NCBI GenBank assembly: GCA_963745235.1
Contig: CAVUXE010000037.1
Coordinates: 32,001 to 96,000, forward strand
Length of the DNA stretch: 64,000 nt
DNA from: an uncultured Spirochaetota bacterium
GTDB lineage: Bacteria > Spirochaetota > Spirochaetia > SZUA-6 > Fen-1364
Direction: 5' to 3'
This document shows, one piece after another, positions 1-12,018 of this stretch. Position 1 is the first letter of the stretch. The number at the start of each line of letters is the position of its first letter. A program made the position numbers and the translations under genes. The notes under the pieces were generated by a model. It had not been told where the DNA came from. It did no database searches and was given only the letters and a program-made list of their open reading frames with translations.

Positions 1-30
1 CGGCAAATCACGGCAAATCTCGGCAAATCC
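1..30 (+). repeat. 3 x 10-bp tandem repeat CGGCAAATC(A/T/C)
   Basis: cggcaaatca cggcaaatct cggcaaatcc read directly at the window start; may extend upstream. Confidence 0.8.
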
Positions 31-37
31 GTCAAAG

Positions 38-66
38 TTGACAGCCCCTGAGGCAACGGCTATCCT
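38..66 (+). promoter_or_regulatory. sigma70-type promoter of tRNA-Leu
   Basis: TTGACA (38-43), 17-bp spacer, TATCCT (61-66), 10 bp before the tRNA. Confidence 0.75.
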
Positions 67-75
67 GCCTGCGAA

Positions 76-160
76 GCCGGCGTGATGAAATGGCAGACAT
101 GCCAGACTCAAAATCTGGTGGGTGGCAACGCCCGTGTCGGTTCAAGTCCGACCGCCGGCA
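76..160 (+). tRNA. tRNA-Leu(CAA)
   Basis: Acceptor stem GCCGGCG/CGCCGGC, anticodon arm CCAGA-CTCAAAA-TCTGG, long variable arm, T-loop GGTTCAAGTCC; no encoded CCA. Confidence 0.97.
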
Positions 161-377
161 GAGAGTTCGTGCAGATGCAAGGAATTGGCGCACCACCCTT
201 CCATGAACGGGCGGAAGGATGGCCCACTCGCCCCTATCCATACCAGTTTCCCTACCAGTTGAGCGGCCTTGTTCCTTCCAAACTGCGAGCCTCGGAAGGG
301 ACTATGCTCGTGACGGCGAGAAGGGTTCGGCATTGCGTCCTCCCGTGTAGGAAGCCGCCAATCCGGCTCGATTCAGC

Positions 378-1118
378 TCACGCAACCCTCGTGCTGCTTC
401 GCGGGGCGTCGTGGGACTTCTCGATCCTTCGCGCAACGAGGAGCGTGGCCTCGTAGAGGATCACAAGCGGAAACATGACGGTCAGGGGCGCGACGATGGG
501 ATCGCTCACGGGCGTGATGATCTCGGCAAAGGCAAAGAGTATGAAGTACGCGACCCGGCGTCTCTTTTTCAGGACAAAGACGCTCAGTACGTGCAGCCGA
601 ACAAGGATGATGAGAAGGCACGGGAGCTGAAAAGAGATGCCGCAGGAGAGAAGGAAAAACGTCACGAAGGAGATGTAGTCATCGGCGGAGGGCATGTACT
701 CGATCCTCGGAGGGAAAAGCTGCACGAGGACCTTGATCATGCTCCAGAGGAGGTAGTAGCCGAAACAGGTCCCTGCCGCGAACAGGACCACCGAAGCCAC
801 GAGCAACGGCATGACGAGACTTCTCTCGGAGCGCCGCAGCCCGGGGGACACGAAACCGATGAGCTGATGCGCCCAGAGCGGGGTGGTGAGGATGATCCCC
901 CCGTACAAGGCGAGGCGCAGCTTTATCATCAACCCGTCGAGAAGCCTGAAAGCTCTCAGGTGCAGACCGCCCGAGGGAAGAAGCAGGACGGTCAGGGCGG
1001 AATCGGCGAAAAAGTATGCAACAACGGTTCCCGCAAACACGGCGACGGCGGCAACGAGGAGGCGCCGCCGCAATTCCGACAGGTGATCGGAAAAACTCAT
1101 GAAAGCGTTGCCCGTCAT
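378..1118 (-). CDS. tatC: Twin-arginine translocase subunit TatC
   Basis: MSFSDHLSELRRRL, FVSPGLRRSE, FQLP and ITPVSDP motifs; six hydrophobic segments. Confidence 0.93.
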   Translation of the reverse strand: MTGNAFMSFSDHLSELRRRLLVAAVAVFAGTVVAYFFADSALTVLLLPSGGLHLRAFRLLDGLMIKLRLALYGGIILTTPLWAHQLIGFVSPGLRRSERSLVMPLLVASVVLFAAGTCFGYYLLWSMIKVLVQLFPPRIEYMPSADDYISFVTFFLLSCGISFQLPCLLIILVRLHVLSVFVLKKRRRVAYFILFAFAEIITPVSDPIVAPLTVMFPLVILYEATLLVARRIEKSHDAPRSSTRVA

Positions 1119-1136
1119 GCAATCCTCACAGCGGGT

Positions 1137-1469
1137 CTATGAGAGCCTGGCTCCACACTGGCCGCAGAATCGGGACTCCTGCGGGTTCAAAGCGTTGCAC
1201 ACGCCGCATGACCGCCCTGCGGCAGAAACGTTGTGCGGCGCGGGAGCCTGCGCTTGCCGAGACGCGGCGTCATCTTGAGAGCGTCTCTCCTGCACGCCGC
1301 TGCCTCCGTTCTCATCCCTGAACTGCGCACTCATTTCCTGGGCGCCTTTGCGGAACTCCCTGACCGACTTCCCAAGCCAGTGACCAAGTTGGGGAAGTCG
1401 CTTTGGTCCGAATATCACGAGCGCGACGATTCCGATGAAAAGCAGATGAATGGGCTGAAGTCCGAACAT
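1137..1469 (-). CDS. tatA: TatA/E subunit with C-terminal zinc ribbon
   Basis: ALVIFGPKRLPQLGHWLGKSVREFRKG; tail CGVC...FCGQCG. Confidence 0.9.
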   Translation of the reverse strand: MFGLQPIHLLFIGIVALVIFGPKRLPQLGHWLGKSVREFRKGAQEMSAQFRDENGGSGVQERRSQDDAASRQAQAPAPHNVSAAGRSCGVCNALNPQESRFCGQCGARLS

Positions 1470-1491
1470 GGTTCCTCCTATTCGTAACGGG

Positions 1492-1797
1492 CTACTCTCG
1501 TATGCGATAGACAGCGCACGAATGGAAATCGATCTCCCACTTGAAGCCAGGAATCCTCTCCCACAGGTATTTTCGGCTCATCGTGTCCCACCACTGCTGG
1601 AAGCGGCCAGTGTTATCGGCCATGTCACGTACCAATCTCTCGTACAGCGCACTCGCCTGCAGGTCGTTCTCGGGAAGACCGACCAGTGACCGGAAGAGCT
1701 CCGCGAGGCCGTTCTTGCGCTCGAAGAGCATGCGGATCTCGTCCCGTTCCACGCCCTCAACCGCGCCCACGCTCACGCGGTCGTTTTCAGTTGCCAT
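1492..1797 (-). CDS. CXXX repeat peptide modification system protein
   Basis: VG.V...ERDEI..LFERKNGL.EL and QQWW..MS.KY.W...WEIDF..C motifs of the CXXX-associated family (TIGR04116 as I recall it); operon context. Confidence 0.8.
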   Translation of the reverse strand: MATENDRVSVGAVEGVERDEIRMLFERKNGLAELFRSLVGLPENDLQASALYERLVRDMADNTGRFQQWWDTMSRKYLWERIPGFKWEIDFHSCAVYRIRE

Positions 1798-2890
1798 TGC
1801 GGTCCTCCTTCTTCAACTGCGCGAGGATCTCTTCCTGCACCGCGAGGATCCGCGCCAGCGTCTGCTCAATGCGCCCGTTTGTGCCCCCCTGCTGAGGCGA
1901 CCCGCGATCCTGGCTCCTGCGAGCGCCGATTTTCGACTGCGCCTGCATGAGCGCATCGAACGGATCGAGGTAGGCGAGCCGGGGGATGGGTTCCGTCCGT
2001 GCAAGGAAAGTCACGTCGCCGAGCAGATCGCGGAGAATGCTGGATGCATTCCTCTCGTGGTGCGAGGCGATGCACTGCTGGTGCGATGGCGCGTTGATCT
2101 CGAGGGTCGTGCGCTTGTTCAGGTAAAGACAGCGCTTGCAATGGTACGCATCGCAGGCTGAACAGATGGCGGCGTGGGCGATGTCCAGGAGTTCGGCGTT
2201 CGGCACGCGGAGGCCCTGGCGAAGATTTCCCACGGGCTGGTTCGGCTCATCGTGCAGGAATCCGGGACAGACATACAGGTTTCCTTCAGGCCCGACGGTC
2301 ACGTGGTCGATCCCCGCCTGGCAGTTGCGCATCGAGGTGAGAAAGATCCTGTCGGTCAGGAAGCCGAGCTCGATGTCGCGCCGCCGCCTCAGCGTCTCGG
2401 CCACGCAATGTGCGAGGTCCTGGAGAGACCGCCAATAGAGCTCGAGCGCCGCATCGCCTGGCGTCTCCAGGTCCAGGAGACAAAGGTTTATCCGCCGGCA
2501 CGTTCCAATCAGCGGGAGCAATACCGCCGGCAGCTCGGCGATACGGCCGATGGGGAAGCGCACGATGATATTGGCATCCCGCACACGGGCTGGCAACGCA
2601 GTCTTTTCGAGGTCTTCGGGCCCGACGATCACCGTCGATGCTGGATGCGCATCCGCCGCGGAAAGCGGGACGATGTCGGCATGGCTGACGCTCTGCATGA
2701 CCGGCGCAAAGGACGCAGGAGGTTCCGTCTCTCCGTATTGGAAGTTCACCACCAGCCCCCGCGCCTGGGCGAACGCAACGGCCTCCCGAAGGGTTTCCAA
2801 CGGGATGGGACGCGGCGCGGGTCTTTCAGGCTTCGCGTAGTAGCAGAAGGAAGGCGCAGACTCGTCGATCGGCACGAGGAGGAACTTCAT
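1787..2890 (-). CDS. CXXX repeat peptide maturase (SPASM-containing, lacks CxxxCxxC)
   Basis: N-terminal SFCYY, LTDRI...MRNC.AG...ITVGPEG..Y.CP.F, then CSACDAYHCKRC and PS.QQC; TIGR04119-like as I recall it. Confidence 0.82.
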   Translation of the reverse strand: MKFLLVPIDESAPSFCYYAKPERPAPRPIPLETLREAVAFAQARGLVVNFQYGETEPPASFAPVMQSVSHADIVPLSAADAHPASTVIVGPEDLEKTALPARVRDANIIVRFPIGRIAELPAVLLPLIGTCRRINLCLLDLETPGDAALELYWRSLQDLAHCVAETLRRRRDIELGFLTDRIFLTSMRNCQAGIDHVTVGPEGNLYVCPGFLHDEPNQPVGNLRQGLRVPNAELLDIAHAAICSACDAYHCKRCLYLNKRTTLEINAPSHQQCIASHHERNASSILRDLLGDVTFLARTEPIPRLAYLDPFDALMQAQSKIGARRSQDRGSPQQGGTNGRIEQTLARILAVQEEILAQLKKEDRNGN

Positions 2891-4105
2891 GGCGATGCCC
2901 CCTCGGGGGCTGCGGCAGCGGGCAGTTCTTCACCTACCGGCGGAAGCTTGGCGAACATCTTCCAGTAGTAGCGGTTGGCGCGCACCCGCGCCTTGTGCAT
3001 CGCGCAGATGAAGACGGCCCTCTGATAGATCGTCTCGGTGTCCGCCGCATCGTAGTTCAAGCCCTGGCACCAGGCACATCCGCTGGCAACCTCGCAGGCG
3101 AGGCATTTCTGCGGGCTCTGGCGCATCCGGTCGAGCGTGAGGAACGGACGAAGCCTGTTCTGATCGATCCCCTCGAAGCAGCTTCCCACGGTCCGCGCCG
3201 GGTGTCGCGCGAGCGAGTAGGGTGCGAACCTGATGCAGGGGTAGAAGAGGCCGGCGTGGTCGACGGCGAGCATCTTCCCTGCCCCGCACCAGTTCTGGGT
3301 GTCCTGCTCCGCATCGAGGGGGAGGCCGATCGAATCCGAGAAGAAGGTCGCGGCCACCGTGTTGAAGAGCCCTTTCGCGAGGACGTGGTCTGCAAGCGAT
3401 TTGAGCTGCTCCTCGAGAACCGCATCATCGCCTTCGACCCAGACGTTCTCGAAAACAGTATTGATGAACACGTTCGGTATCCCAAGGTCCCAGAGGTGCA
3501 CGACGCTCTCGAACACGAACGGCAGGTCCTCGTGACCCACCGTGACCTTCGTGCCTGCGCCCGGAAACTGCTCCAGCCACCGGGGGACGTTGCGCACGAC
3601 GTCGCCATAAGATCCCCTCCCATCGGGATACCGGCGCTGCAGGTCGTGCTTGCGCTGCGTGCCATCCAGGCTTAGCCCGATGCTGAGGTGGGCCCTGTTC
3701 TTTGCGATGAAATCCTGGACGCGCGGGTGGTCGTAGAGGATGCCGTTGGTCGAAAGGCTGAACCGGTAGCTGTCGAACCAGGGGTGGTTCTCCTCGTACA
3801 TACGCCGCTTGATGTAGTCGCACACCGCATCGATCAGCTCGATCTCGAGCAGGGGTTCGCCGCCAATGAAAGCCCATTCGACGCTGGACTCGGGAAAGAA
3901 GCGTTGGTTGGCGAGCACGTAGTCCACCGTGCGCCGCGCGATGTCGAAGCTCATGGGGTGCGCGCGGTTCTTGCCCGGACAGGTAACAGTAGCAGCACCG
4001 CAGCTGGCAGTCCTCCGTTACGATGAAGGAGATATTCTTTGCACTGCCTTCGCCCCAGCTCCGTGGCTTCTGCCCGAAAGTGTAATGGCTACTCGGAATA
4101 GACAT
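2887..4105 (-). CDS. Radical SAM/SPASM peptide maturase, CXXX-repeat target family (one apparent frameshift near 3975)
   Basis: KNISFIVTEDCQLRCCYCYL joins MSFDIARRTVDYVL if one G of GGG is removed; FIGGEPL, NWCGAGKML, YPCIRF, CLACEVASGCAWC; TIGR04115-like. Confidence 0.85.
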
Positions 4106-4120
4106 GAGAAGGGGAACCTC

Positions 4121-4336
4121 TCAGTGTGCGCAGACCATGGTGCACGTCGTTGAGCAACTCCCCGTGCAGGACGAGCTGCAGCCACCGGTGCAGGTCCCCT
4201 CGCAGTTGTCCTTGCAGGCGCTGGTGCACGTCCCGCCGCATCCTCCTGGCGGCGAGCAACTCGAGAGGCTGAGACCGAGCAGGGCGAACGAGGTGAGGAC
4301 GGTTGCAGCGCTTCTCAAGAAATGACGGCGGTCCAT
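4121..4336 (-). CDS. CXXX-repeat RiPP precursor (71 aa) with Tat and lipoprotein signal
   Basis: MDRRHFLRSAATVLTSFALLGLSLSSC followed by ten Cys at exact 4-residue spacing; in frame with the upstream rSAM ORF. Confidence 0.82.
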   Translation of the reverse strand: MDRRHFLRSAATVLTSFALLGLSLSSCSPPGGCGGTCTSACKDNCEGTCTGGCSSSCTGSCSTTCTMVCAH

Positions 4337-5458
4337 TTGATCGCTCAGGGCGGGAAGGCCGCCGTCTCCGGTCGTGACGAGCTCGTCATCGACGACGCCT
4401 CTCGCCGCTGGGCTGAGCCTCGACGGGGAATGGCGTCTCTCGGCCGCATCCTGATACTCGTGCCAGGCGCAGCAGTAGGGATCAGGGGCGTTGATGTTGC
4501 CTGTAAAATAGAGGGCGCGCGCCCGGCACCCTCCGCCCGACACCGCGAGGTGCGGGCAGTCGGCACAGCGGGTGTTCAGGGCGAAGACCTTCTTCCTTGC
4601 CAGGTGCTGCGCCCAGAGACTTGCAAGCGGTTGTGCGCGAATGCTGCCTTCAAGGAAATCGTCTCCCAGGAAAGCGCACGGGCTCATGCGGCCGTCGGCC
4701 CTGATGCCGAGCTTGGTATCGGGACAACCGAACCGCTGCGTTTCATTTCCCGCGCCGCATTGGAGCGAAAGGTCGGGAGATCGGCCTATGGCGGCGATCA
4801 TCTGCCAGGCTTCGCCCGCCATCGATGGCGGGATGAGAAGTGAGGAGTTCTCGAGCGCCCTGCCCGCGGGCTTGACGAGCCCGACGACGAGATTGCGTAC
4901 TCCAATGCTTTTCAGGAACTCGGGCAGGCGCGAGATCTCCTGCATGTTCTCGCGGTGAACGGAATACTGAACGACGAGGTCTCGGATATCCGCCGACTGC
5001 AGAAGCCTGATTCCTCGCAGGGCCGCAGCGAAGGCGCCCTGGCTTCGAAGGGAATCATGGGTCTCCGGGGTCACACCATCAAGGCTGACTTTCACCCGCA
5101 CCTGCTCCTGCGCCAGGCAAGCAGCTGTCTCGGCCGTGACGAGGGATCCCGTGGTCAGGAGCGTTACCGCGAGGCTTTTCGCTCGCGCGCGGGAGACGAA
5201 ATGCCGCAACCCGCTTCGCATCATCGGCTCGCCGCCTGAGAAGGTCACAGCTGGCACGCCCATGTCGCTCACCTGATCAATGAGCGAGAGCACTTCCCCG
5301 TCGGAGAGCTCCTGTTCCATGGGCTTCCCCGCGGAGCAATAGCAGTGCCTGCATTGATTGGAACACCTGTTCGTCAGGTCGATGTAGACGCGTGATGGAA
5401 GAAGCGGTGAGAAGGTCTTTCTTTCAGAGCCCATTCCGACATAGAGACTTCTTGCCAT
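4121..5458 (-). CDS. Radical SAM/SPASM enzyme (PqqE/NirJ-like), reading through into the precursor
   Basis: CSNQCRHC, FSGGEP, KVSLDG, SPASM region C...DGRMSPC...CADC...GGGCRARA...DPYC. Confidence 0.85.
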   Translation of the reverse strand: MARSLYVGMGSERKTFSPLLPSRVYIDLTNRCSNQCRHCYCSAGKPMEQELSDGEVLSLIDQVSDMGVPAVTFSGGEPMMRSGLRHFVSRARAKSLAVTLLTTGSLVTAETAACLAQEQVRVKVSLDGVTPETHDSLRSQGAFAAALRGIRLLQSADIRDLVVQYSVHRENMQEISRLPEFLKSIGVRNLVVGLVKPAGRALENSSLLIPPSMAGEAWQMIAAIGRSPDLSLQCGAGNETQRFGCPDTKLGIRADGRMSPCAFLGDDFLEGSIRAQPLASLWAQHLARKKVFALNTRCADCPHLAVSGGGCRARALYFTGNINAPDPYCCAWHEYQDAAERRHSPSRLSPAARGVVDDELVTTGDGGLPALSDQMDRRHFLRSAATVLTSFALLGLSLSSCSPPGGCGGTCTSACKDNCEGTCTGGCSSSCTGSCSTTCTMVCAH

Positions 5459-5728
5459 TGGAACCCCCCTCGCACACTTTTTTTGGTCTTCAGATCCTGG
5501 CGCGGCTGAGAAAGGTTTTCACATGATAGCTCTACAGGCCGATGGATGCAAGAAGAATATCTCAAGAGCTCAAAAAACTGCAAAATGAAACTCGGTATAC
5601 AAAGCCGCCATACCAGAATCCATACCTATTGGATGAGCCACCGTAGCTGGGGTAGCGGAAATAGCTTCGAGAGCCTTGAAATAGCTCGAAAACGGGCCTC
5701 ATAGCGCGTGTAGGAAGGATGGACGCGC

Positions 5729-5784
5729 CTCAAAATCTGGTGGGTGGCAACGCCCGTGTCGGTTCAAGTCCGACCGCCGGCAGA
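5729..5784 (+). repeat. att-site copy of the tRNA-Leu 3' half
   Basis: Exact 56-bp duplicate of 107-162; the 5' half of the tRNA is absent. Confidence 0.95.
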
Positions 5785-5819
5785 CAATTCCATCCTTGAT
5801 CGGTTTTGCACTCTGGGCG

Positions 5820-6000
5820 CGATTGCGGGGCACGCTGCTGCGAGCCCACGAATGCACCGTATCCGCTGCCTGCCGCGCCTCCTTGGCGTCTGATAGGGTC
5901 AACTCCAGTTCGTTATCGGGGCAGCGGACTTCAACGGCGTACGGATTCAAGATCTGGTCGGCCGCTCGCACGGCAGAAGGGACTCCTTCCGCCCGGTCCG
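5820..6000 (-). pseudogene. HEPN-domain fragment
   Basis: LNPYAVEVRCPD...DAKEARQAADTV resembles the C-terminal half of HEPN proteins (L.PYAV..RYP). Confidence 0.45.
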
Positions 6001-6179: not shown

Positions 6180-6810
6180 CGATGATAGTAGCGCACGAGG
6201 CTCGAAAGGCTCTGGCGGAACGCTATTGGCTTTCCCCCCTCCGCCTCTGCGTTGATCTGCGGAATGGTCTCAGCACCCTCCAGCAGTGGCCAATAGTGTT
6301 GCCGCCACTTCTCGCTGACTTCCAGGAGCGGGACACTGACCGACCCGATGGGCTCCCAGCGAGCGGAGGCCCACGAAGTCATGGCGATATCGCAAAGCGC
6401 GCGGATCAAGGCCAGCTTGTACGTAGCCACCTTCCGATCAGCGTTGATGATGCTTTCCACCCGATCGATGGCGCGCGTGCTCACTCCGGAGGACTGGAAG
6501 TACAGTGTTGCCCAGAGAAAGCCCCTCCCAGCGGAGTCAGCGGATTTCCATTCATTCTCAAGCTCAAACCCAAGCCGTTCGAAAAGGAGCCGAACCTGGG
6601 CAACGGACCGGATGATCATGAGCCTGCCCGCCTCATCACGCTGACCGCCGGGCCTGATGTCACCCCGCTCGACTGGCATAGAGATCAGGAGCTTCCCGCC
6701 CTTCTTGAGGCGCTGGCGAAGCTCGAACGCGACGTCGAAGAGCTCTCCGTCCGGGATGTGCATGATAACGCAGAGAGGAGAACACCGTCATACTCGTGTC
6801 GGATATCCGA
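6180..6810 (-). pseudogene. Class I SAM methyltransferase / HNH-associated protein fragment
   Basis: DGVLLSA..MHIP...LKKGGKLLIS, then KVATYKLALIRALCDIA...YWPL; both ends missing. Confidence 0.6.
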
Positions 6811-6844
6811 GGGCAGGCCTCCAGGCAGGAAGCCATCAGAGAGC

Positions 6845-7774
6845 TTGCCCAGATGGAACTTCATACTTACCGGCAGCTCCGCGCGTCAACTCAGGCGAGG
6901 CAGCGCCAATCTCCTTCCTGGCCGAAGCATCGCACATACCCTGACTCCCGTCATGCAGGCAGAGTGCAGGCCGAGTACTCTGCTGCCGGCCGCCCTGCCG
7001 GCTGAGCCGAGATTTCCCCAGAGGAGCCTGGAAGACTACTTGCTGTTCGGAAGCCTCCCTGGGCTGTATTCAGAAGGACGGGACGCCTGGGCTGAGACGC
7101 TGGCAACGTGGGCCGATCTTTACATCGAGAATGAGGTCCGGCAGGAAAACATCGTCAGGGACATGGGAGCTTTCAGCCGGTTTATCGAGCTTGCGGCGCT
7201 TGAGTCCGGCCGTATCGTCAACTACACCAAGATGGCCTCCGCCGTGGGCGTGGCCGTGAACACGCTCCGCAATTTCTTCCAAGTCCTTGAGGACACCTTC
7301 CTCGGAATACGGGTACCGCCATTCACCGAAACACGCCGCCGTGTCGCCCTGGCACCCCGGTTCGTTCTCTTCGACATAGGAGTTCGCCATGCTCTTGCCG
7401 GTCTTCGCATCTCAGAGGACCTCATTCGCATTGGGGCGGAGGAGCTCTTCGAACAATGGGTCATCTCCGAGCTCTGCCACCGCGCCACTGCCCTGGGGCC
7501 TGGATACTCCGTCAGCTCCTGGCGCACCTCTGGCGGGGCAGAGGTGGACGCCATCCTGCGAACTCCCGAGGAGGTGATTCCCGTGGAGATCAAATGGACC
7601 GACAGCCCGCGGCCATCGGACGCGCGGCACGTGGAGACCTTTCTCGATCTCCACTCGGGGGCGAATCGAGGCTTTGTGGTGTGCCGCACTCCCTCACGCC
7701 AGGCGCTTACCGACCGGGTCACTGCGCTGCCGTGGAATGAGTTCTATAGCTACAGCTTGTCGGGTAATTGCTAG
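6845..7774 (+). pseudogene. AAA+ ATPase with DUF4143, N-terminally truncated; last codons hit by the IS
   Basis: FILTGSSARQLRRG.ANLLPGR, FDIGV, WRTSGGAEVD, VEIKW; no Walker A present. Confidence 0.75.
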
Positions 7775-10898: not shown

Positions 10899-11824
10899 TC
10901 AGTGTACCTCGCTTGGATTGAAAACGGCGGCGAACTCCCGTGCGAAGTCACGCATCTTCACCCTTCCCAGGGACGGCCTGTTGCGGTGGTAGTCTTCAGC
11001 CAGCGCCCCGCTGTGATGGGCTGCATACATCTCCACGAGACCCGCAGCGATGCTCGGCTGTATTCCGGCGGCTACCAGGCCGGCCTGCATCTGCTCGCCG
11101 GGAATGATGATCCACCTCAAGTCAGGCTTCCCGATTGCCTCTCCCAGTATGCGCGCCGTTTCGCTGCAGGTGAGCTCGTCGCTTGCCACGTAGCGCACCG
11201 CTCGCGCGGCGCCCTTTCCGGCCTGCCTGCCCGAACGCGGCGCCACCAACTCTTCGGCAACCGCCGCGGCGATGTCGATGGGTGACGCCCACACCACCCT
11301 GTCCTCTTCCCCGTAGTTCGCGGCAATTACTCCCTGCCTCTTTACCATCTCCACGTAGCCGTACAGATTGTAGTAGAACCCGGTCGGCCGCATAAAGGTG
11401 ATAGCCACATCCTTCAATTTGTCGAGGATGAGCTCCATCTCATGGTGAAGGATAATAAGGCCCGAGCCCTTATCCAAATGAGCTCCGATACTGCTCAAGT
11501 GGACTACCCGCTTCACTCCCGCCGCCTCGATGGCCTGGGAGTAGGTAGCACCGATCTGGCGGACCTTTACCATTAGATCGAGATTTGGATCGGAGTAATC
11601 GCCGGGGGAAGCATAGTGTATACCGCATCTGCCCCCTGAAACGTTCGTGAAAGGAAATCGACATCCGTTACCGATCCGATGGCGGCCTTGGCGCCCAGCG
11701 TCTCTATCTCTTGCCTGCGTTCCGGCTTGCTGCTTATGACCGTAACTCTGTGTCCCTTCTGAACCAGTTCCTCCGTCAACGGCCTCCCGATGTGTCCAAG
11801 CGATCCGGTGAGTACGAGATTCAT
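10899..11824 (-). CDS. NmrA-like NAD(P)H-binding protein (frameshift near 11605)
   Basis: MNLVLTGSLGHIG Rossmann start in one frame; VVHLSSIGA...MRPTGFYYN in another. Confidence 0.8.
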
Positions 11825-12018
11825 ATGTGCCTCCGTCCAGGACAAGAAGGTAGTGAAATCCGTCCGCAAGACCATAGCCGGACCTCCGCTCCTTGTAGCC
11901 AGAACCAGAGGTTAGTGGAATTTCAGGCCATGCGGCCGGGTCGGAGGCATGCGCGGGCACGGGTTTCGCCATGAAATTCCGTCTTGCATCACTCGTTTTT
12001 CATGATATGCTTGCCTGT

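Follow-up and report, generated by a model that had tools for sequence, protein, structure and literature searches.

Peptide maturases of the radical S-adenosylmethionine (SAM) superfamily usually rely on a leader peptide and a recognition domain to locate their substrates. A locus in a 64,000-nucleotide stretch from an uncultured Spirochaetota bacterium (GenBank assembly GCA_963745235.1, contig CAVUXE010000037.1, positions 32,001 to 96,000; the whole stretch is hereafter the window) raises the question of whether enzyme and substrate can be one polypeptide, as a cysteine-rich precursor with a twin-arginine translocation (Tat) signal lies in frame at the C-terminus of a radical SAM enzyme. An initial annotation had left this open reading frame (ORF), at 4121-5458(-), as either an enzyme-substrate fusion or an artefact. 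Judged from sequence comparisons, the fused ORF is a real, anciently fixed fusion gene. We propose, with a probability of about 0.55, that it encodes a tethered enzyme-substrate protein with export-coupled release, situated inside an island of Cys-Xaa-Xaa-Xaa (CXXX) repeat maturases and Tat components.

The ORF list of the window gives the gene as a single stop-free frame of 445 amino acids, so that the precursor is in frame with the enzyme as annotated, and the exact protein is on record on two contigs. No stop separates the end of the SPASM-type domain (DPYCC, residues 326-330) from MDRRHFL (residues 375-381), again as annotated, and the intervening stretch, put there at some 40 residues, measures 44. 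The NCBIfam profile TIGR04117 (Cys-Xaa-Xaa-Xaa repeat radical SAM target), whose cut-off is 50 bits, gives a borderline match, with 46.0 bits on the last 71 residues alone, 49.7 bits in a scan of the genome and 50.1 bits with neighbours. We take L-S-S-C401, downstream of the Tat signal, to be a lipobox at which signal peptidase II would cleave. The parts of the protein and the surrounding features are collected in Table 1.

Mapping reads over the linker had been suggested as a check on the fusion, and contigs from four public runs of four studies (X1, X2, X3 and X9), compared with window positions 3300-5600, now provide one. The X1 contig (762 letters) spans 4223-4974 and carries indels only at 4715 and 4855, with none in 4337-4468; the linker is therefore confirmed base for base. 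The X2 contig is identical to the window over 4206-4384. X9 is identical over 4535-4865, its whole cover, and X3 has no cover of 4070-4531.

Homologues with the same fusion were also found, which shows that not all relatives encode enzyme and precursor separately. A protein search returned two metagenome proteins, P0001 (447 amino acids; its contig, of 1515 bases, probably ends within the gene) and P0002 (463 amino acids), which have the same architecture at 54-55% identity and 93-97% query cover; the next 35 matches are stand-alone enzymes of 299-378 amino acids at 41-51% identity. PF10518 (TAT_signal) matches the corresponding stretch of P0001 and P0002, in both below its 22.7-bit cut-off. 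The spacing from DPYCC to MDRR is exactly 44 residues, without gaps, in all three fusions. In a tree of the enzyme part alone (a quick IQ-TREE search in which all 53 rows were used) the three fusions group together as one clade with an SH-like approximate likelihood-ratio support of 99, and the path from the window protein to P0001 and P0002 amounts to 0.77 changes per site. The same spacing within a single clade of this depth indicates that the fusion is old and has been kept. A single open spacer would not be rare: among intergenic-like windows of this genome 15% of those of 132 bases and 36% of those of 75 bases are stop-free in a given frame and, because a matching frame adds a factor of one in three, roughly 5-12% would be expected to join two genes in frame. 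Chance would not be expected to keep the spacing identical across 0.77 changes per site in a clade of three proteins, and we consider it very probable that the in-frame fusion is real and conserved.

Further searches added few relatives. An exhaustive representative search gave P0001 alone as matching through residue 443 (best 150 of 38,604 matches). A search with the tail among longer proteins found only P0002 and P0270, which lacks the enzyme; among near relatives it found nothing, being a weak, word-based search with a low-complexity sequence. P0270 (767 amino acids, from a JGI metagenome) has an unbroken CXXX-repeat region of about 350 residues with three repeated beta-rich domains after it, and the precomputed Pfam family PF27846 is common to P0270, P0001 and P0002. 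None of 25 loci in GTDB species genomes was fused, and a metagenome scan for the DNA of P0001 and P0002 returned 37 loci, none above 38% identity. The 40 related genomes contained no orthologue of the fused gene (best match E=1.5e-28 at 29% identity; matches listed, at most 38%). In a sample of the phylum, 4 of 400 other genomes matched (G172, G206, G128 and G383): the match in G172 is a free-standing precursor of 98 amino acids, that in G206 proved to be an unrelated ACKA repeat inside a 524-residue ORF, and that in G128 is interrupted by stops.

The DNA between enzyme and precursor looks like translated sequence. Between P0001 and P0002 the enzyme is 88% identical (273/310) and the Tat signal 96% (26/27), and identity falls to 13 of 19 residues in the tail (331-349) and to 4 of 19 at residues 350-368; the last figure is close to the level that unconstrained change would give, and this segment nevertheless contains no gap, stop, frame break or change of length. 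The six residues before M375 are conserved again (4-5 of 6; 5 of 6 between P0001 and P0002), and the window DNA that encodes them is not purine-rich. Across residues 331-374 a coding model of codon usage fits the fusion frame and off-frame models fit the other two. The score for this stretch (S=11.3) was matched by none of 240 intergenic-like windows and that for residues 350-374 (S=7.1) by 1.6% of all 618 windows and 4.5% of the stop-free ones, against a null set that is small (163 segments) and probably A+T-biased. The initial annotation had seen no clear Shine-Dalgarno sequence before ATG 4336, and AGGA, GGAG and GAGG are indeed absent from -20 to -4 of this codon, whereas each of the six other starts in the cluster has one of them. 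Codon usage in the fusion frame, the missing Shine-Dalgarno sequence and the conserved length together suggest that the linker is translated, and at the level of the reading frame they bear out the annotated alternative of an enzyme-precursor fusion.

Two features of the linker that had been pointed out as possible gene boundaries do exist. TGA 4347-4345 ends an ORF in another frame (4345-4566(-)), and an ATGA overlap at 4389-4386 is preceded by GAGAGG (4403-4398). We reject the ATGA as a true gene junction: because its ATG is not in the precursor's frame and opens an ORF that ends after 14 codons at TGA 4347-4345, it could not deliver the precursor without two indels. Nor must the precursor itself begin at MDRRHFL. 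M375 aligns with Ile or Leu in five free-standing precursors with Tat signal, lipobox and CXXX repeats (from the genomes G032 and G172), which begin 9-22 residues further upstream, so that no start codon need have been preserved at MDRRHFL. G032, a relative of the same order, encodes four such free-standing Tat-lipobox proteins, which have long CXXX regions (105-195 amino acids) and of which three are in tandem; no maturase gene lies within the G032 stretches around them.

Could one frame instead make two products? A functional precursor might be started at ATG 4336, independently of a Shine-Dalgarno sequence or by reinitiation after the 14-codon mini-ORF, with the read-through fusion a tolerated by-product of an old stop-codon loss and the free precursor using its N-terminal Tat signal in the normal way. 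M375 is present in all three fusions, directly before the RR motif; GAGAGG is found 8 bases upstream of the mini-ORF (ATG 4389), whose stop precedes ATG 4336 by another 8 bases. X1 and X2, covered whole or in part over 4121-4516, keep this segment unchanged while their enzyme part is frameshifted, although the overall rate of difference predicts only about 2.6 events there and the contrast is not significant; with these frameshifts, a precursor could come only from an internal start in both. Starts that lack the motif are also common in this genome, in which it is found before just 34.5% of the 2053 ATGs that come first in long ORFs, as against 19.5% of 15,147 internal ATGs. A by-product frame, however, would not be expected to hold a stop-free 44-residue spacing over 0.77 changes per site or to keep coding-like codon usage in its linker. 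ATG 4336 is the sole start of the seven in the operon without the motif, the free-standing relatives have Ile or Leu at the position of M375 and start upstream of it, and ribosomes travelling along the long ORF would probably hinder initiation within it. We regard this explanation as unlikely, though it is the strongest of those that we weighed against a tethered protein.

The enzyme domain most resembles peptide and protein maturases. PF04055 matches with 79.9 bits, and the CxxxCxxC motif (C32/C36/C39; 5342-5365), which begins at residue 32, is invariant in 53 sequences, in which seven further cysteines (245, 261, 298, 301, 311, 329 and 330) are invariant or nearly so. Despite these cysteines and fold neighbours of the SPASM type, the window protein is unmatched by PF13186 (SPASM) at E<=0.01; its CX2CX9C spacing differs from what we take to be the SPASM motif. 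The best NCBIfam names are of the AhbD, NirJ, StsB, SkfB, ScmE, mycofactocin and PqqE types, all below their cut-offs. AhbD reaches 141.4 bits against a cut-off of 500 and NirJ 136.9 against 515, so far below these equivalog cut-offs that 'AdoMet-dependent heme synthase', the name given to P0002, is unsupported. The matches to the StsB and SkfB profiles start at profile positions 96-102, which indicates that the N-terminal recognition element (RRE) of enzymes for ribosomally made, post-translationally modified peptides (RiPPs) is absent. The closest solved structures by both sequence and fold are SkfB (6efn, E=3.3e-19 by sequence), PqqE, anSME, ChlB, CteB and SuiB, all maturases of peptides or proteins, at an identity of only 15-28%. 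In an AlphaFold2 model the predicted local distance difference test (pLDDT) score exceeds 90 to about residue 340, including a helix at 327-343, and falls below 50 in the linker; linker and tail are disordered except for a helix at 377-393.

The fused gene stands at the head of what looks like an integrated, horizontally acquired island with attachment (att)-type borders: the CXXX/Tat cluster is enclosed between a tRNA gene and a direct repeat of its 3' half, and no integrase lies between the two tRNA-Leu(CAA) repeats. By family matches, the gene heads a CXXX maturase set (TIGR04115, TIGR04119 and TIGR04116) together with a TatA and a TatC of the island's own (Table 1).

Table 1. Coordinates of the fused gene, its parts, the island and the related loci discussed in the text.
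Feature	Position	Strand	Evidence
Fused ORF: radical SAM/SPASM enzyme, tail and linker, Tat signal, lipobox, CXXX-repeat core	4121-5458	-	open frame; family matches
Shine-Dalgarno-like GAGGGGGG, 5 bases upstream of ATG 5458	5464-5471	-	sequence; motif test
Radical SAM core and SPASM-type auxiliary-cluster domain, residues 21-330, without N-terminal RRE	4469-5398	-	PF04055, conserved Cys, fold
Enzyme C-terminal helix and tail, residues 331-349, shared with stand-alone homologues	4412-4468	-	alignment; model helix 327-343
Linker, residues 350-374: sequence free, length fixed, last 6 residues P-x-L-S-x-Q conserved	4337-4411	-	alignment, codon usage
Twin-arginine signal M375-DRRHFLRS, hydrophobic stretch, lipobox L-S-S-C401	4256-4336	-	sequence, TIGR04117, alignment to free-standing precursors
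Core: 10 Cys in an exact 4-residue period, C407 to C443, Gly/Ser/Thr-rich	4124-4255	-	sequence, TIGR04117
Putative out-of-frame 14-codon mini-ORF, ATG 4389 to TGA 4347-4345	4345-4389	-	sequence
TIGR04115 CXXX-repeat-target radical SAM maturase, PapB-like, split by extra base 3977	2887-4105	-	518.5 bits vs 350 for 2887-3954
TIGR04119 CXXX repeat peptide maturase, SPASM-like, no radical SAM core	1787-2890	-	195.3 bits vs 150
TIGR04116 CXXX repeat peptide modification system protein	1492-1797	-	78.8 bits vs 50
TatA/E-family protein	1137-1469	-	TIGR01411 55.7 bits, PF02416
TatC	378-1118	-	TIGR00945 153.5 bits
tRNA-Leu(CAA), proximal island border	76-160	+	Rfam
Direct repeat (62 bases, 97%) of tRNA 3' half 107-168, distal island border	5729-5790	+	
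Free-standing CXXX proteins of G032	L080:227-1558 and L079:361-930		
ORFs upstream of stand-alone enzyme homologues	L054:3139-3645, L055:5504-6013, L056:152-883, L057:5247-5981		

All three system proteins exceed their cut-offs, and the target of the system is not a separate small protein here. Positions 1-30 of the TIGR04115 profile are found in the frame 3425-4105, and NF047865 (PapB) matches this enzyme at E=1.6e-47, below its own cut-off. The island TatC is the only one of the genome in one frame, the other being split over two, and lgt and lspA are present in the genome. The island TatA carries a candidate C-terminal zinc ribbon at residues 88-109 (PF13240 gives 23.9 bits, below its cut-off of 25), an unusual addition for a TatA. 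Rfam found nothing other than the tRNA. Directly after the stop codon of the fused ORF, a weak hairpin of 7 pairs (4123-4105) shares bases with the ribosome-binding site and the start of the TIGR04115 gene; a promoter and terminator scan of positions 1-6000 gave nothing above shuffled expectation, the hairpin at 4105-4123(-) included. An antisense ORF within the fused gene (4322-4843(+)) was put down to the high G+C content and set aside. On the far side of the distal repeat are genes for a DUF4143 ATPase, a DUF6788 protein and a DUF772 transposase.

From these elements a mechanism can be proposed for the tethered enzyme-substrate protein. The whole 445-residue chain would be translated, and the covalent tether would replace leader recognition, with the fused enzyme acting on the cysteine-repeat tail of its own or a neighbouring chain. 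The chemistry would probably be a Cys-directed radical reaction, such as thioether formation, alongside that of the PapB-like TIGR04115 enzyme. The internal twin-arginine signal would then engage TatC as in class V (FecR-type) substrates, so that the modified tail is carried across the membrane and the enzyme is left in the cytoplasm. At C401, Lgt and signal peptidase II would release a lipidated peptide of 45 residues, the two thereby serving as leader protease; as in borosins, the enzyme would be spent once per product. The initial annotation held that an internal Tat signal would need proteolysis or internal initiation. This was too strict, as class V substrates such as FecR are described with internal signals in a 2026 review (PMC13673990). 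With the class V and class II precedents, lgt and lspA in the genome, and tatA and tatC in the island, we consider the export step feasible. More doubtful is the mechanism in its complete form, in which a single-use radical SAM enzyme is the leader of its own substrate and modifies the tail of its own chain, only the tail is threaded by Tat and the lipoprotein signal peptidase is the leader protease, with product and enzyme parted by export itself; we put it forward tentatively. If true, RiPP maturation would gain a new logic and the Tat substrates a sixth kind, internal, cleaved and lipidated.

Several observations weigh against a tethered enzyme-substrate protein. The fusion is known from three sequences in two deep lineages, and P0001 and P0002 are gene calls; the retention of M375 in all three proteins is compatible also with an internal start. 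No earlier case came to light in which a lipobox follows an internal Tat signal, and the class V signals named in the review, FecR among them, are not cleaved (PMC13673990). In the AlphaFold2 model residues 356-445 are of low confidence and no docking of the tail is visible, although a tail modelled at this confidence gives no information on docking. The stand-alone homologues also point elsewhere. We examined six GTDB loci encoding such enzymes (36-56% identical; downstream DNA in five, upstream in four) and found no run of at least four CXXX units in any frame. All four loci with upstream DNA instead have an ORF that overlaps or abuts the start of the enzyme gene and carries a Cys within its last 1-4 residues, and two of these ORFs match TIGR04222 at 37.1 and 26.9 bits (cut-off 43). 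The partners of this enzyme family thus appear to be Cys-bearing C-termini and not CXXX repeats; such an upstream ORF and its stand-alone enzyme may be a separate, undescribed enzyme-substrate pair. Because the stand-alone homologues do not lie beside CXXX peptides, the link between enzyme and substrate in the window rests on the fusion itself.

Alleles in which the frame is broken count on the same side. The enzyme part is interrupted by a 1-base loss at 4715 in X1, X2 and X3, by an 11-base tandem duplication behind 4855 in X1 and X2, and by a 1-base loss at 5354 in X3; X1-X3, whose runs come from three studies, form a lineage with shared substitutions. Two truncated gene calls, P0122 (177 amino acids) and P0272 (163 amino acids), fall in one 90%-identity cluster, and P0122 is 97% identical to the window protein with a C-terminus that equals the inferred reading of the duplication allele. 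In the window itself the TIGR04115 gene is frameshifted by an extra base at 3977, in a GG/CCC context. Taken together, these changes suggest that the locus may be decaying in this species. The initial annotation had remarked on many such indels in the window, which does hold other split genes, the TIGR04115 maturase being one instance. An NmrA-like gene is split over two frames (10899-11972(-) with 11573-11875(-)), the DUF4143 ATPase gene (6182-7774(+)) lacks its AAA_14 half in frame, and the second tatC of the genome (G000:C79:8784-9301) is split at profile position 99-100. These split genes point either to an indel-prone assembly or to many pseudogenes.

The fused frame could accordingly be a relic, no longer expressed or under selection in a decaying island, whatever its ancestral role. 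Such decay would fit the frame breaks, the truncated gene calls and the frameshifted main maturase, as well as the island's position between tRNA repeats without an integrase inside and the lack of an orthologue in the 40 related genomes. The window allele, however, is intact over 445 codons and aligns to its homologues without frame breaks, and X9 is identical to it over 4535-4865. An assembly error may account for the extra base at 3977, because the assembly holds several split genes, the second tatC included; the base is absent from the X2 and X3 contigs, and its removal restores a single frame over 2887-4105. Decay in one species would also leave the conservation in P0001 and P0002 unexplained, and we consider a non-functional relic improbable. 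The artefact suspected by the initial annotation, a base lost or gained in the linker that joins two separate genes, could draw on the several split genes and on the single-base shift that would stop the enzyme at TGA 4347-4345, but it can practically be dismissed given the indel-free linker of X1, the match of X2 over 4206-4384, the same fusion and spacing in P0001 and P0002 from other metagenomes, and a codon usage that fits the fusion frame in the linker and is off-frame in the other two.

A natural tether between enzyme and substrate in the radical SAM superfamily would show another route to substrate specificity, and the fusion would be a ready-made construct for the chemistry of the uncharacterised CXXX-repeat system. 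A search of the open-access literature in PubMed Central and bioRxiv brought up no paper that describes this system, nor one that describes a fusion between a radical SAM enzyme and its precursor. The closest parallel in architecture is found in borosins of the OphMA type, in which the modifying enzyme and its core are one polypeptide, here at the level of the ORF in three proteins. Borosins likewise carry the core at the C-terminus and consume the enzyme once per product. They differ in that their enzyme domain is an alpha-N-methyltransferase and not a radical SAM domain, no export signal is known between enzyme and core, and release is by a separate protease.

Compared with the CXXX-repeat system as defined in NCBIfam, the island has the same TIGR04115, TIGR04119 and TIGR04116 proteins and a target with 10 Cys in a 4-residue period behind a Tat signal. 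The family target is separate, with free-standing relatives of 98-195 amino acids, whereas in the window it forms the C-terminal end of a further radical SAM enzyme. Among characterized maturases, SkfB, PqqE, anSME, CteB, SuiB and ChlB are the nearest solved relatives of the fused enzyme by sequence or fold, but three of them (SkfB, CteB and SuiB) have at the N-terminus an RRE, some 100 residues long, that is absent here. PapB forms thioether links from Cys in repeated motifs (PMC9413430). The neighbouring TIGR04115 enzyme is PapB-like; in the maturation of the ranthipeptide freyrasin by PapB, by contrast, the precursor is separate and the acceptor is Asp or Glu, and the fused enzyme is not the PapB-like one. 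In Methanococcus voltae the SPASM enzyme CrpC (TIGR04463) is described as placing thioether crosslinks in a large cysteine-repeat protein, CrpA (PMC13692751). This substrate, too, is a cysteine-repeat protein and not a short peptide; in that account enzyme and substrate are encoded by separate genes, CrpC has a predicted RRE, the repeats are of 17 or 34 residues with C-X-X-Q/D, and the text available mentions no Tat signal.

For export the nearest counterpart is FecR. The review describes class V substrates, FecR among them, as having a folded cytoplasmic domain followed by an internal Tat signal, and class II substrates as lipoproteins (PMC13673990). As in FecR, whose C-terminal part crosses the membrane, the arginine pair of the fused protein (residues 377-378) is internal and lies behind a folded domain, here modelled with pLDDT >90. 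The fused protein differs in that its cytoplasmic domain is an enzyme and that a lipobox follows, with predicted cleavage and lipidation of the class II kind. The fusion would thus extend the rare internal Tat signals to a cleaved, lipidated product and, set against the substrate classes of the review, such a combination of class V and class II would be new.

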